This document shows positions 1-3,804 of a stretch of DNA of 63,476 nt, piece after piece; position 1 is the first letter of the stretch; each line of letters opens with the position of its first letter. A model generated the notes under the pieces. It was not told the origin of the DNA and ran no database searches. It saw nothing but the letters and a program-made list of their open reading frames with translations. The DNA is from an uncultured Deinococcales bacterium. GTDB taxonomy: Bacteria; Deinococcota; Deinococci; Deinococcales; JAAFIG01. The position numbers were made by a program, and so were the translations under genes. The stretch is taken from positions 1 through 63,476 of the forward strand of contig CAXTKV010000002.1 in assembly GCA_964244895.1 (NCBI GenBank), read 5' to 3'.

Positions 1-10
1 GGTGAAACAA

Positions 11-40
11 GAAACACCGTCCCAGACGGTGTTTCTCGAG
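11..40. repeat. Palindromic intergenic repeat (SRE/REP-like), single-hairpin copy with CTCGAG flank
   Basis: gaaacaccgtc-cca-gacggtgtttc is a perfect palindrome with 11-nt arms, followed by ctcgag. The same core (CACCGTC..GACGGTG) recurs more than 30 times in the window. Confidence 0.85.
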
Positions 41-121
41 TTTGAGATGCAACGCCTGCTTTAAGCAGGTACTTTCTGGCACAATGGAACCATGACTCAG
101 ACTGCGACGTTTATTGGCACA

Positions 122-2386
122 TTAAAAGTTCTTATCGATTGGATCGTCAATCATTTGGTTAATCCTCTTCTTAAATTCCGTAGTTTTATTAACCACTTTT
201 TCAAACTTCTTTAATGCTTTTCCAAATTCTAAACCTTTCGTTTTGTCAATTTTTTCATGGGATATAGCAAAATAGACCTCCAGAGGTAGATTTTTCATCT
301 TTTTAGAGAAATATTCGAGTTCGGCATATTCACCCAGCTCTATCAAAGCAACAACGCAAAAATATAATTTATACATGGAAAGTGCGTCATCTGCAGACGC
401 TAAATCCTTCGAGATTTCCTTTAGTGATTTTTTAAGGTAGTCATATGAATATTTTCTTCTGAATATAGATTGAAACATAAATAAAAGTACTATTTGGGGC
501 ATGGAAGAAAGAAAAGACTTTGTTTTGCCCGAAACAATTCGAAGATAGAATTCCGAGAACTCAGTGATTACTTTATCTAACAATCGATGCGTTGTTTGGT
601 ACGGTGTAGAGTATGCAGCTAATAGAATATCGGGGAAATTTATAATTTTGACGAATTTTTCGATTTCGGATTTAGGAACCATGTCCGAAATTTCAGTTAA
701 TTGCAAGGGTGCATCTTTTTTGAGGCCCAAATAGAAAAAGTATGAATTCATCCAATACAAATTGAATATTTTTTCAGACATAGGCATTCCGTCGGTGCGA
801 ATCTTTTTTAAAGCATACAAATACTCGAGAAAAGTTTTGTGTTTAAACATAAAAATATTATCCTCGATGCTTCCATATATAATATCGGATCTTTTTATTA
901 GTTTGTTCAAAAGAGCATCATGATCTAGATTCAAATTCCTCTCACTCAAATAATCGCGGAATTTTTCCCGTGCCTCCGTTAAAGAAAGTTTTGGTACATT
1001 GTTGTCTAGCATGAATTCTGCAATATTCATTAGAATATTTTGAACAGCTTCGTACTCCTTTTCTGACTTTATACCTTTGTTTATGTCCCACCTACCTAAA
1101 GAAAGTTCTGTATATTTTGCATACAGTTCTGTAAGGTTTGATGGTAAATCAGCAGAATTGTCGTTTATTAAACGCGCTAATAGTATCGCCGAGATTGGAT
1201 TTTGAGGGAGCATACGAAAAACCTGAGAACGACTAATATCGTCAAATATCTTCTTGCTTAAATTCATTGTTTTACATATCTCTTGGATGAAATTCACTGT
1301 TTTTGATAATGTGAGCGGTGGAATTTGTAATCGATACACGCCAAATATTTGCGAATCAAAGTCATCTAGATCTCTACTGGCTAGTGTTATATGCAAATTA
1401 TAATTAGAAGATTCTGATTGCCTGATCAGTTCTTCTATGTGTTTTTTCCTTTCATCGCTTTCTATTTCTAGTTCATCAAAAGCATCTAAAAAAATTATAA
1501 TCTTAGAGTCCGCTGCTTTAGATAATAGATCAGCATCAACAGATGATTTTACCAAATTTTCTAAACTATTATTATGATCTACATACAATTCAGCATAAGT
1601 ACATCTGATTGGGATGCACTTCTTTGTTAAATAAATTTCTGGTGAACAGTAGTGATCGATAATTTTTCTAAGTAAACTGGACTTCCCCGAACCCATATCA
1701 CCTTCAAGCAGTACAAAGCGATTATTTTCGATTGCATCTATAGGATCGATTTTTTTATTAGTTTTGAAGAATCTTGGATTCATTCTTTTTGGAATTCTAA
1801 CGTATTCAATCACGTCATTTTCTATGTAAATTGGTGCGTCGCCTACCACTATAATACTAGATTGTAAATTTTCCTTGTGGTTTTCGGTACGTAATTTCTC
1901 GAGATAAAGCCCAGTTTTTACTTCAATATTGCTCCAAAATGTAGGAACGTATTTATCAATTAAAGCTATTAAATCGTGACCACTAATAAATTCTATCTTT
2001 CTGTTTTTGAACTTTTCAAATATTTTTTGTTTGGCATTTTCGCTAATATTTTGAGTTGTCATCACCCAGACTTCTGAGATATAAATTTTTTTCTTTCCAG
2101 AGTTGTAAAATCTTTCGATAAGGAAACATTCATCTATTTGCTGCTCGATTTTAGTGGTGTCCTGACTTATTTTACCTATTTTTACCACTATGCCAACGTA
2201 ACTTGTCCGTAAAAGCACTTCATCTTGCTTTTCAAATACAAAATCTGCTCCCATTTCACGTGAACCGTGAGTGTATTCATGACTTATAACGGAAGGAAGA
2301 ACTCCGAGTAAACTAGAAATAATTGGATGCAACTCATCTACTTCGTCAGAGATATTGTTTATTCTTTCCACTTTATTTTCGTACAT
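122..2386 (-). CDS. NACHT/STAND P-loop NTPase with an N-terminal Mrr-like (PD-(D/E)xK-type) domain and a helical C-terminal region; Avs/bNACHT-like candidate defence protein
   Basis: 754-aa ORF at ~30% GC in a >60% GC context. SD GAGGA lies upstream of the ATG. Walker A GDMGSGKSS, Walker B IIIFLDAFDELE and TLASRD occur in NACHT-like spacing. The N-terminal ~165 aa has an Mrr-like layout (GADFVF..GIVVKIGK..ISGHDLIALI). Confidence 0.75.
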   Translation of the reverse strand: MYENKVERINNISDEVDELHPIISSLLGVLPSVISHEYTHGSREMGADFVFEKQDEVLLRTSYVGIVVKIGKISQDTTKIEQQIDECFLIERFYNSGKKKIYISEVWVMTTQNISENAKQKIFEKFKNRKIEFISGHDLIALIDKYVPTFWSNIEVKTGLYLEKLRTENHKENLQSSIIVVGDAPIYIENDVIEYVRIPKRMNPRFFKTNKKIDPIDAIENNRFVLLEGDMGSGKSSLLRKIIDHYCSPEIYLTKKCIPIRCTYAELYVDHNNSLENLVKSSVDADLLSKAADSKIIIFLDAFDELEIESDERKKHIEELIRQSESSNYNLHITLASRDLDDFDSQIFGVYRLQIPPLTLSKTVNFIQEICKTMNLSKKIFDDISRSQVFRMLPQNPISAILLARLINDNSADLPSNLTELYAKYTELSLGRWDINKGIKSEKEYEAVQNILMNIAEFMLDNNVPKLSLTEAREKFRDYLSERNLNLDHDALLNKLIKRSDIIYGSIEDNIFMFKHKTFLEYLYALKKIRTDGMPMSEKIFNLYWMNSYFFYLGLKKDAPLQLTEISDMVPKSEIEKFVKIINFPDILLAAYSTPYQTTHRLLDKVITEFSEFYLRIVSGKTKSFLSSMPQIVLLFMFQSIFRRKYSYDYLKKSLKEISKDLASADDALSMYKLYFCVVALIELGEYAELEYFSKKMKNLPLEVYFAISHEKIDKTKGLEFGKALKKFEKVVNKTTEFKKRINQMIDDPIDKNF

Positions 2387-2478
2387 AATTTCCTCGATTA
2401 ATCAGTCAATTTGGAATTTGATACTATACTTCACTTCTGTCTTTTAGGTTGCGCGAACAATTGGATTCTGTTAATTGC

Positions 2479-2988
2479 TCATCCATTCTTCGGGAATCCT
2501 GCAACCAACCCTGACTGCTCAATCTCACCACTCGCATCAAAAAACTGCACGTGTCCATCATGATCGCACGTCCAGAATTCTGATGCGCCAGCCTGAAGGT
2601 ACAACTCGCGTTTGCGCTCAAATTCCTCTGCGGTGTTGCTGGGACTCCAGACTTCCACGCAAATCTCGGGCGCAACCACGAACAATTCTTCGGGTGCGGC
2701 TTCGTAACGTTCCGTGCTGGCCCAGGCCACGTCCGCGACGCGCACGCCGTCGGTGGTTTGAATGGCGGCTTCCGTGATGGTGTCCCCGTCTTGCATGTGC
2801 GTCTCGAGCCACGCGGCGATGATGGTTTGCAAGCGCCCGTGTCGTTTCGCGGTGGGACTCATGATGATTTGACCTCTAGCGTTGGTTTCAATTTTGAATG
2901 GCATGTTTTCCCAGCGTGAATCCTGAAGCAGTGTTTTCCAATGCTCGAGGGTCGCGTCTTGGGCGGGTCTGGTTGTGACTTGGCTCAT
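2479..2988 (-). CDS. Uma2-family (DUF820) endonuclease-fold protein
   Basis: 169 aa. Family-typical motifs are KIETNARGQIIMSP, HGRLQ and EICVEVWSPSNTAEEFERKRELYLQAGASEFW. A TAGAAT -10 box lies 6 nt upstream of the ATG. Confidence 0.8.
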   Translation of the reverse strand: MSQVTTRPAQDATLEHWKTLLQDSRWENMPFKIETNARGQIIMSPTAKRHGRLQTIIAAWLETHMQDGDTITEAAIQTTDGVRVADVAWASTERYEAAPEELFVVAPEICVEVWSPSNTAEEFERKRELYLQAGASEFWTCDHDGHVQFFDASGEIEQSGLVAGFPKNG

Positions 2989-3135
2989 GGGTTCATTCTA
3001 GGGCGTGCGTCCTGCACGGTGTTCTCGAGAAGTCAATATTTGCGTCCTGGACGGTGTCCCTCGGATCAAAACGAACCACATCACTGAATAACTCATCTTC
3101 GGATTCTAAACATGTCCATGTACTAGAATAAGATT

Positions 3136-3462
3136 ATGCCAACAGCAACGCATTACGAACACGTGATCCTGAACGAACACGGCTTGCCTGTGCTCGAGCC
3201 TTCGGGCTTCAAGATCCACTTCCTCGTGCGTGATCACGTGCAGCGTGGTTTGGACGCTCAGCAATTGCTCGAGTTGTACCCTCACTTGACGCTCGGACAG
3301 ATTCATTCGGCGTTGGCGTACTACTGGGATCATCAAGCCAGTATGGATGCCGCGTTGGAAACGGATCGGCTCGAGACGGAACGCTTGCTGGATCACGTGG
3401 CGAAGCCGTTGAATCGCGCTGATCTCGAGCGTCGGCTGGCGCAAAAATCCTCAGATCGGTAA
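3136..3462 (+). CDS. DUF433 domain protein (antitoxin-like HTH)
   Basis: 108 aa. The motif LELYPHLTLGQIHSALAYYWDH is typical of DUF433. A TAGAAT box lies 6 nt upstream of the ATG. Confidence 0.7.
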   Translation: MPTATHYEHVILNEHGLPVLEPSGFKIHFLVRDHVQRGLDAQQLLELYPHLTLGQIHSALAYYWDHQASMDAALETDRLETERLLDHVAKPLNRADLERRLAQKSSDR

Positions 3463-3804
3463 TCGTCTCACCCCGTTGCAGAGTTCTTGAAAACTGCACG
3501 TGTGCGCGATCAACTCGAGTTCGGCGATACACGCGCCGTAACTCAATTTGTGCTGCTCCATGAAAATGATTGGACTCAAAGTGCGCCCTGAACTCTGGTA
3601 GCTCGCGGCGATTTCCAGAAAATCCCGATCTTGTGTGAACAGCACGCGATTCAGGGCAGATGCCCGACTCAAAAGGTCTGAGTCGGGCATCTCGTGGTTC
3701 CCATCTTCGCTCGCGGTCAGAACGTCAATTCCTCGGATGCGCAAGCCATCAGTGATTGGTTTGGGGACGTGCTGATCCATGTAGTACGCGATCTCTGCGG
3801 TCAT
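3451..3804 (-). CDS. DUF5615 (PIN-like) protein, putative toxin partner of DUF433
   Basis: 117 aa. The pattern YMDQHVPKPITDGLRIRGIDVL..SDLLSRASALNRVLFTQDRDF matches the DUF5615 layout. SD AGAGGA is present. The 3' end overlaps the DUF433 gene by 12 nt in convergent orientation. Confidence 0.7.
   Translation of the reverse strand: MTAEIAYYMDQHVPKPITDGLRIRGIDVLTASEDGNHEMPDSDLLSRASALNRVLFTQDRDFLEIAASYQSSGRTLSPIIFMEQHKLSYGACIAELELIAHTCSFQELCNGVRRLPI

Follow-up and report, generated by a model that had tools for sequence, protein, structure and literature searches.

A probable bNACHT25-type antiphage gene acquired as a single AT-rich cassette downstream of nrdJ in an uncultured Deinococcales bacterium

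At the left end of a contig from an uncultured Deinococcales bacterium (CAXTKV010000002.1), an AT-rich gene (nucleotides 122-2386, minus strand) stands in G+C-rich DNA close to nrdJ, which encodes a class II ribonucleotide reductase. The entire 63,476-nt contig is the window analysed here, and only 121 nt of it lie to the left of the gene. The locus raises the question of what this gene encodes, how it came to lie in such a genome, and whether its neighbours arrived with it. An earlier note on this DNA had read the gene as a horizontally acquired, single-gene antiphage system, possibly an undescribed variant, that formed a small defence islet with the adjacent Uma2, DUF433 and DUF5615 genes. 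Our results indicate that the gene very probably encodes an antiphage protein of the bNACHT25/32 type, named after two NACHT proteins of E. coli, and that it entered a variable region downstream of nrdJ by horizontal transfer, on a single AT-rich cassette of ~2.4 kb. We infer the antiphage activity, the DNase activity, the trigger and the route of insertion from the comparisons described below.

The open reading frame (ORF) at 122-2386 is intact, begins with ATG and encodes 754 amino acids, and each of the peptide motifs quoted in the earlier note occurs at the spacing given there: GADFVF (residues 46-51), YVGIVVKIGK (63-72), GDMGSGKSS (229-237), IIIFLDAFDELE (296-307) and TLASRD (334-339). 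Pfam searches, profile comparison with the PDB and Foldseek agree on the order of the modules, which is a nuclease, a NACHT module and a helical NCH1 C-terminus. They support the proposal that a nuclease, a NACHT-type NTPase of the STAND class (signal transduction ATPases with numerous domains) and a helical C-terminal region are joined in one protein.

The N-terminal effector domain (residues 1-178; 1853-2386, minus strand) has a PD-(D/E)xK nuclease fold: its AlphaFold2 (AF2) model, with a predicted local distance difference test (pLDDT) score of 90.3, contains the alpha-beta-beta-beta-alpha-beta core typical of these enzymes. The best Foldseek matches in the PDB were MspJI (4f0q; E 2.5e-5, query TM-score (TMq) 0.51), AspBHI and FokI cleavage domains, and further matches included AF1548, SwaI, PaqCI, MUS81 and HamA. 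A sequence profile of the domain found no match in the PDB, so that fold comparison alone worked, and Pfam Mrr_cat_2 reached 15.6 bits at residues 38-139, below its cut-off of 22. The claimed resemblance to Mrr-type nucleases holds at the level of fold and stays below threshold at the level of sequence. Conservation was scored on a 120-sequence alignment of homologues, in which E15, H20, E44, G46-A47-D48, K69, Q83, E86 and R92 are invariant or nearly so, and E105 and W107 are likewise conserved. D48, whose codon lies at 2243-2245, and K69 are present in 119 of the 120 sequences.

The nucleotide-binding domain (NBD; residues 205-370; 1277-1774, minus strand) matches Pfam NACHT at residues 223-369 with 30.6 bits (cut-off 26.7). 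Its invariant residues in the alignment are G234-K235 of Walker A, D301 of Walker B, the NACHT-type acidic pair D304-E305 and R338 of sensor 1. The helical and winged-helix domain (WHD) part of the NACHT module follows (residues 371-535; 782-1276, minus strand), with H516, F519 and E521 invariant. H516 is the winged-helix histidine of NOD-like receptors (NLRs), and the segment that contains it, FKHKTFLEY, aligns with the sequence 'F.H...QEFFAA' in the winged helices of NLRP1 and NLRP14. The family profile matched NLRP1, NLRP3, NLRP5, NLRP14 and NLRC4 in the PDB, and Foldseek matched the full-length AF2 model (pLDDT 88.3) to NLRP3, NLRC4, NOD2, NLRP9 and NAIP5 at E values of 1e-9 to 1e-7 and to Avs4 (8dgf_B) at 1e-8. 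The C-terminal NCH1 domain (131-628, minus strand) was identified by Pfam PF22728 at residues 587-752 (93.2 bits, cut-off 27) and is all-helical in the model; no repeat-type sensor, whether tetratricopeptide repeat (TPR), leucine-rich repeat (LRR) or WD40, is present in the Pfam search or the AF2 model. Mean identity to the window protein within the family is highest in the nuclease and helical/WHD parts (43-46%, with helical/WHD at 46%) and lowest in the NBD and the C-terminal region (~29-30%), where the C-terminal entropy is 2.06.

This architecture is that of the clade-6 bNACHT proteins, in which an N-terminal PD-(D/E)xK DNase is followed by a NACHT NTPase and, at the C-terminus, by NCH1; in bNACHT25 the D48A substitution abolishes defence (PMC12169576). 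For comparison, we took residues 1-399 of bNACHT25, which are given in the S3 table of the bNACHT25 paper, and traced the gene by its insert DNA to E. coli NZ_CP091756; there it encodes WP_001702659.1 and lies inside a Rac-like prophage. Full-length BLASTP gave a colinear alignment of residues 6-748 of the window protein with residues 6-740 of bNACHT25, at 32% identity and 57% positives (E 6e-142). D48 aligned with D48, and the unusual motif D...(I/V)-x-K69 was common to both proteins. The Pfam pattern of bNACHT25 matches as well: NCH1 at 576-741 (132 bits), NACHT, and a sub-threshold Mrr_cat. Because the match extends over the full length and includes both NCH1 and the essential Asp48, the window protein appears to be a diverged member of an already characterized family, clade 6, and the view that it fits no named subtype, and may be an undescribed variant, has to be given up.

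The family is broad and uniform. Among 292 homologues in a large protein database, the best is ~39% identical; nearly all are 750-800 residues long and aligned over 94-100% of the query, and the sources named for them, from several phyla, range over Tissierellales, Syntrophales, Gammaproteobacteria and Bacteroidetes. A search with the N-terminal domain alone among 1.84 billion representatives yielded 448 clusters (50% identity), and here too the full-length matches are nearly all 750-800 residues long with the domain at the N-terminus. The effector thus looks essentially private to the nuclease-NACHT-NCH1 architecture. We found no match to the NACHT protein in phage genomes by tblastn, and no family for it in PHROGs. 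On plasmids, homologues at 32-34% identity were found in Pseudomonas and Enterobacter only, together with a distant NACHT in Deinococcus aetherius. The latter, on megaplasmid NZ_AP026561.1 (72623-74284), is 23% identical over 71% of the query, and other NACHT lineages therefore occur in the genus.

Two other classifications were considered and rejected. Membership in Avs/AVAST (types 1-5) was discarded, as the PADLOC Avs2 match is 16.3 bits over 64 residues, the C-terminus is NCH1, and structural matches to NLRs outrank that to Avs4. The matches to mad8, Avs2, DS8 and EruA in PADLOC 2.0 and NCBIfam were likewise set aside as a basis for classification, all being partial and far below family level.

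If the window protein belongs to this family, how would it act? bNACHT25 protects E. coli against single-stranded RNA and double-stranded DNA phages; once activated it degrades DNA, and defence requires the nuclease residue Asp48 (PMC12169576). Its sensing is indirect, via the host chaperone DnaJ, and the activator is not bound by bNACHT25 itself; bNACHT25 and bNACHT32, the only characterized clade-6 members, both need DnaJ (PMC12169576). A histidine mutant of bNACHT25, analogous to NLRC4 H443, is growth-inhibitory when expressed. The window protein retains D48, K69, K235, D301/D304/E305, R338 and H516, and with them every invariant or near-invariant residue of the family. A mechanism of the bNACHT25 type is therefore the most likely, since every residue required for the scheme is kept. 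In the uninfected cell, by homology with bNACHT25, the protein would be an ADP-bound, auto-inhibited monomer. Infection would be sensed via the C-terminal NCH1/helical region (in bNACHT25, indirectly and with a need for DnaJ), nucleotide exchange in the NACHT module involving K235, D301/D304/E305, R338 and H516 would lead to oligomerization, and the clustered PD-(D/E)xK domains, through D48 and K69, would degrade DNA, so that phage replication is stopped, the infected cell is killed, or both.

Of the steps in this scheme, the trigger is the least certain, and it may differ from that of bNACHT25, given the 32% identity and the low conservation of the NBD and C-terminus. One alternative keeps the family and the effector but replaces the sensing step: the diverged NCH1/helical C-terminus would bind a conserved phage protein directly, in the manner of Avs proteins, instead of monitoring DnaJ or proteostasis. 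The C-terminal region is indeed one of the parts least conserved within the family, many STAND defence proteins bind structural or replicative phage proteins directly (PMC13581612), and the bNACHT25 mechanism is itself incompletely resolved. However, both characterized clade-6 proteins depend on DnaJ, and bNACHT25 is switched on by an activator that it does not bind; moreover, conservation extends to the helical/WHD region and to the architecture as a whole, and the protein carries none of the TPR, LRR or WD40 sensors. We therefore consider direct sensing unlikely, though it is the most plausible of the alternatives weighed here, and favour indirect sensing of the bNACHT25 type.

Is the gene foreign to this genome? 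The contig was placed in Deinococcales because the nrdJ protein is 79% identical in amino acid sequence to those of several Deinococcales metagenome-assembled genomes (MAGs) and 67-69% identical to those of Deinococcus species. Against a G+C content of 0.62 for the contig (3856-63476), the NACHT gene has 0.328, with 19 G/C in nt 121-180 as the earlier note had counted; G+C at third codon positions (GC3) is 0.31, versus 0.85 for nrdJ. Apart from the region of this gene, no 2-kb window of the contig falls below 0.55. In 30-nt windows the composition breaks are sharp on both sides, from 0.50 to 0.30 at ~nt 121 and from 0.33 to 0.60 at ~nt 2480-2490, as had been claimed, although the left side consists of 121 nt only. 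The accompanying statement that everything right of ~2480 exceeds 60% G+C was too strong: 2480-3855 averages 0.54, and 64% of the 200-nt windows right of ~2480 exceed 0.60. Local dips also occur elsewhere in the contig, one at a 182-residue ORF without a Pfam match (18618-19166, minus strand; ~0.45-0.50 G+C) and one in a ~400-nt stretch at 33300-33700 (down to 0.31).

The low-G+C segment, ~122-2478, contains one gene only. It includes an AT-rich spacer of 92 nt upstream of the NACHT gene (2387-2478, minus strand; G+C 0.337), which arrived together with the gene and carries the Shine-Dalgarno sequence GAGGAA at 2390-2395, ahead of the ATG. No homologue of the NACHT protein was found in 80 retrieved nrdJ loci from Deinococcota genomes, in agreement with the earlier view that the gene is foreign. 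In other genomes the homologues are solitary genes of 0.32-0.38 G+C in DNA of 0.46-0.56, lying between housekeeping genes or in prophage (for example L081 7995-10253, from E. coli; L082 10001-12304; L083 10001-12307; L085 1409-3742), and no conserved partner gene stands beside those examined. Single-gene horizontal acquisition is supported by these observations together, that is, by solitary, low-G+C, partnerless homologues and by the absence of the gene from the 80 nrdJ loci; the homology to bNACHT25 and the single gene in the segment likewise bear out the description of a single-gene antiphage candidate. A low G+C content that is constant across the family points either to continual exchange from an AT-rich pool or to a constraint on base composition throughout the family. 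We also considered a functional Uma2-NACHT pair and rejected it, as the homologues elsewhere lack a Uma2 neighbour or any other conserved partner.

We found no integrase or transposase with the low-G+C segment, although an element further left is possible given a left flank of 121 nt. Transfer RNA (tRNA) and Rfam scans of the window were empty, and no direct repeats flank the segment besides the dispersed repeat of the host. As neither an integrase nor a tRNA gene nor a target duplication accompanies it, the cassette would most likely have been inserted by recombination at conserved flanks.

Foreign composition also bears on whether the gene works at all in its present host. It could be a silent or decaying passenger, or could have a role outside defence, for instance as a regulatory STAND ATPase: its function is a prediction by homology, its GC3 of 0.31 against 0.85 in nrdJ makes for a poor codon match, and the 92-nt spacer has no promoter-like site. 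Yet the 754-codon ORF is uninterrupted and all invariant and near-invariant residues are kept, a good Shine-Dalgarno sequence stands ahead of the ATG, the gene runs in the direction of the upstream Uma2 gene, from which read-through could occur, and the characterized homologues are antiphage. These features make a passenger or a non-defence protein improbable, and a functional bNACHT25-type protein is the better account.

A different challenge comes from the position of the gene, 121 nt from the end of the contig. The contig end could be a chimeric join, or read-through from a contaminant, with an AT-rich organism in the same sample as the source; a 29-point difference in G+C, a window that is the whole contig, an exact protein without a record in the contig index, and a closest relative that is only 39% identical could all be cited in its favour. 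The DNA beyond the gene speaks against it. The 121-nt left flank has a G+C content of 0.49 and contains AGAAACACCGTCCCAGACGGTGTTTCTCGAG, a perfect copy of a palindromic repeat found across the contig. The element, AGAAACACCGTCCCAGACGGTGTTTCT followed by CTCGAG, occupies nt 10-40, beyond the left border at ~nt 121; its core motif occurs 64 times in the window versus 0.64 expected from shuffled sequences, and the combination of core and CTCGAG flank is common to copies at 7582, 21298, 52379, 54892 and others. The perfect repeat copy with its CTCGAG flank identifies the left flank as native, and there is host DNA on both sides of the NACHT gene; a plain end-join of foreign DNA would not lead back into host sequence. 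Moreover, solitary low-G+C insertions are usual in the bNACHT25-like family, and AT-rich cargo begins at the same Uma2 stop codon in two related Deinococcales MAGs (L049 and L056). We conclude that a chimera is highly improbable and that the cassette was probably acquired by the host genome.

The same two MAGs locate the other border. Alignment of the window with L049 and L056 runs through the 3' end of the Uma2 gene, and similarity is lost right after the Uma2 stop codon, past which L049 and L056 each continue into their own, unrelated AT-rich sequence. The comparison places the right border of the foreign segment at or just past this stop codon. A direct repeat around the NACHT and Uma2 genes (18-38 and 3043-3063) was examined as a possible target-site duplication and rejected, as it is the dispersed repeat of the host. 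A metagenome scan with a 28-nt pattern from the left flank gave no match, and one with the Uma2 protein gave a single distant contig of 1 kb; an empty site from the same species was not found in these scans.

The dispersed repeat has a consensus of approximately GAGAACACCGTCCAGGACGGTGTTCTCGAG and takes the form of either a single hairpin or two inverted half-sites ~30 nt apart. Two more copies lie between Uma2 and DUF433 (3006-3057), and copies are found at 10-40, 7573-7616, 14532-14585, 21289-21342, 52370-52388 and 54883-54901, among other places; at the positions checked they sit in intergenic spacers near gene ends. The repeat resembles an element of the repetitive extragenic palindromic (REP) type, and a terminator, a protein-binding site or a mobile miniature inverted-repeat transposable element (MITE) are candidate roles.

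Several points weigh against the interpretation of the gene as a horizontally acquired antiphage gene of the bNACHT25 type. The assignment of function to the window protein comes from homology, not experiment, and clade-6 membership is based on homology and architecture, not on a phylogeny with the reference clade set. Identity to the characterized member is only 32%, with the NBD and C-terminal regions least conserved, and PADLOC 2.0 and NCBIfam give weak, partial matches only. The nuclease motif is non-canonical: in D48...V67-V68-K69, I or V replaces the middle acidic or Gln residue throughout the family, and Pfam Mrr models stay below threshold; the conserved residues E44, Q83 and E86 may stand in for the absent one. 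Expression could be limited by an extreme codon mismatch between gene and host, and a promoter/terminator scan found sites no more numerous than in shuffled sequence and no consensus promoter in the 92-nt spacer. Finally, with a left flank of 121 nt, the insertion site is incompletely defined.

We next turn to the genes between the cassette and nrdJ, which the earlier note had assigned to the same acquired islet. These are a Uma2 gene of 169 residues with a PD-(D/E)xK fold (2479-2988, minus strand; Pfam Uma2 66.6 bits, GC3 0.63), which has weak matches to PADLOC PDC-S03 candidate models; a DUF433 gene (3136-3462, plus strand; 28.3 bits); and a DUF5615/PIN-like gene (3451-3804, minus strand; 45.9 bits). 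The GC3 of the three is 0.63-0.67, intermediate between the values for the NACHT gene and for nrdJ. In L001, L002, L006 and L049, nrdJ is followed directly on its downstream side by homologues of DUF5615 and DUF433 (36-53% identity). The last ~170 nt of Uma2 are conserved in the same orientation in three genomes, at 2479-2500 in the window, at 8129-8302 in L049 and at 13988-14161 in L056; in the latter two, this 3' end is a pseudogene remnant with upstream stop codons. Because these genes are found beside nrdJ in relatives and have GC3 values of 0.63-0.67, they are residents, and only the NACHT gene is foreign, contrary to the islet that had been proposed. Nor do DUF433 and DUF5615 resemble a toxin-antitoxin pair as suggested: instead of a canonical co-directional operon they are convergent, with a 12-nt overlap of their 3' ends in the window. 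The convergent, overlapping layout is kept in L002 (13089-13421, plus strand; 13414-13740, minus strand; 8-nt overlap) and is similar in L001, L006 and L049; the overlap hints at regulation by antisense or convergent transcription.

On the far side of these genes stands nrdJ (3856-6855, minus strand), the core gene that bounds one side of the variable region. The listed ORF (3856-7119, minus strand) begins at a TTG 88 codons before the likely start, M89 (MTKAADPNT...YHFDDHA), which is preferred because relatives start at the equivalent ...YHFDDHA.... In relatives the nrdJ frames are 1,440-1,800 residues long, versus ~1,000 in the window (L049 2788-7119, L050 9962-14305, L056 7691-13144, and other loci with matches of 4.1-4.3 kb), probably from inteins or other insertions that the nrdJ of the window does not have.

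Is the nrdJ 3' flank a site of repeated exchange? We scanned 29 Deinococcales loci for 500-nt windows with a G+C content more than 15 points below that of nrdJ, over 6 kb on each side. Such windows occurred downstream of nrdJ in 18 of the 29 loci versus upstream in 4. Across the order the flank holds defence cargo: a complete type I Thoeris system (ThsA 576 bits, ThsB 228 bits) in D. taklimakanensis (L017 13006-14937), an AbiU/AIPR-like gene in an uncultured Deinococcaceae (L036 13007-14638), SIR2 with an nSTAND NTPase in Deinococcus sp. SM5_A1 (L012 13031-15619) and SLATT in D. phoenicis (L020 13025-13732). Among the Deinococcales MAGs, one carries an NsnA-like/GmrSD_N gene with HEPN (L006 9374-11142), one an AbiJ-like gene with a ClpP-like protease (L004 12978-15090), one a NYN protein (L050 14460-16776), and one a 709-residue NA-iREase2/ResIII protein with a 138-residue RelA/SpoT-like protein (L005 4698-6827 and 6830-7246). 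The L005 709-residue protein joins an N-terminal 'NACHT-associated inactive REase 2' domain to a ResIII helicase motif. In the uncultured Deinococcales L056 there are two unannotated genes of 304 and 199 residues (14344-15258 and 15227-15826; G+C 0.34 and 0.26). No PADLOC defence model matched the L005 or L056 pair, and the latter also had no Pfam match; each pair is a candidate for a defence system of unknown type.

Within Deinococcus itself, the site is bounded on its far side by a convergent glucose/sorbosone dehydrogenase (GSDH) gene, and in the empty sites of L016 (~10763-10833) and L019 (~13003-13075) only ~70 nt separate this gene from nrdJ, a gap that Thoeris fills in L017. The window contains neither the GSDH gene nor the baseplate-J gene, which delimit the variable region in relatives. 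The comparison of nrdJ-proximal loci, a step the earlier note had suggested, thus shows empty sites as well as the right border at the Uma2 stop codon, and agrees with the placing of a defence locus beside nrdJ. In the lineage of the window the exchange point appears to be pinned to the Uma2 stop codon; the 3' end of that gene seems to form the fixed edge of the exchange site. We judge it an even matter whether the nrdJ 3' flank is an order-wide, integrase-free exchange site for defence cassettes in Deinococcales; no description of such a hotspot was found in the searched literature. If it is, unannotated low-G+C cargo at the site, such as L056 14344-15826 and the L005 pair, would be candidate new defence systems, and Uma2 3' ends might serve as recombination anchors.

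The gene itself is of a known kind, and its location beside nrdJ may be new; the hotspot is the part that may deserve follow-up. The protein would extend a characterized, NLR-related defence family of the bNACHT25 type into Deinococcota. A member that has diverged to 32% identity with all catalytic and regulatory residues in place is useful for finding the constrained parts of the sensor and for asking whether the guarding of DnaJ holds across phyla. The nrdJ 3' flank is an easy landmark in the search for new systems in Deinococcota, whose phage defence is little studied.

The locus can be compared with known systems at several levels. Core-genome defence hotspots are known from P. aeruginosa (cDHS) and E. 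coli (PMC10250203, PMC10121019). As in these, a core gene, here nrdJ, flanks a site with genome-specific defence systems, and some sites are empty; the nrdJ site differs in being in Deinococcales, in that integrase and mobile-element genes were not seen at the sites examined, and in that the cargo in the lineage of the window comes after the resident DUF5615, DUF433 and Uma2 genes, not directly after nrdJ. At the level of the effector, MspJI, AspBHI and FokI are the best structural matches to residues 1-178 (E 2.5e-5 to 5e-3, TMq 0.46-0.55) and have, like them, an Asp at the start of strand 2 and a Lys on strand 3; in contrast, the middle Q/E/D is I or V in the whole family of the window protein, which has no DNA-recognition domain. 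The animal NLRs NLRP3, NLRC4, NOD2 and NAIP5 have in common with the window protein the NACHT fold and motifs, the D-E pair near Walker B and the winged-helix histidine, but identity is 11-14%, the window protein has no LRRs, PYD, CARD or BIR, and its effector enzyme is fused in cis.

Avs4 (AVAST type 4) combines an Mrr-like nuclease, a STAND NTPase and a TPR-like sensor. It resembles the predicted scheme for the window protein in that an N-terminal PD-(D/E)xK effector is released through oligomerization of a STAND NTPase, and the two match in structure (8dgf_B, E 1e-8). They differ in that the NTPase of the window protein is of the NACHT clade, with NLRP3, NLRC4 and NOD2 as its best structural matches, and in that the window protein is half the size and ends in NCH1, as opposed to the large TPR-like sensor with which Avs4 binds portal or terminase.

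The closest systems are the clade-6 proteins bNACHT25 and bNACHT32 of E. coli (Kibby et al. 2023, Conte et al. 2025). Phage protection and DnaJ dependence are known for bNACHT25/32, whereas for the window protein they are predicted by homology only. Two thirds of the residues differ from those of bNACHT25, the host belongs to Deinococcota instead of Enterobacteria, and the gene occupies a chromosomal variable region beside nrdJ instead of a Rac-like prophage. The likeness is nonetheless close: the proteins have 754 and 752 residues and an identical order of PD-(D/E)xK, NACHT and NCH1 modules, Asp48 stands at the identical position within a non-canonical D...(I/V)xK motif common to both, and each is encoded by a solitary low-G+C gene in DNA of higher G+C content.

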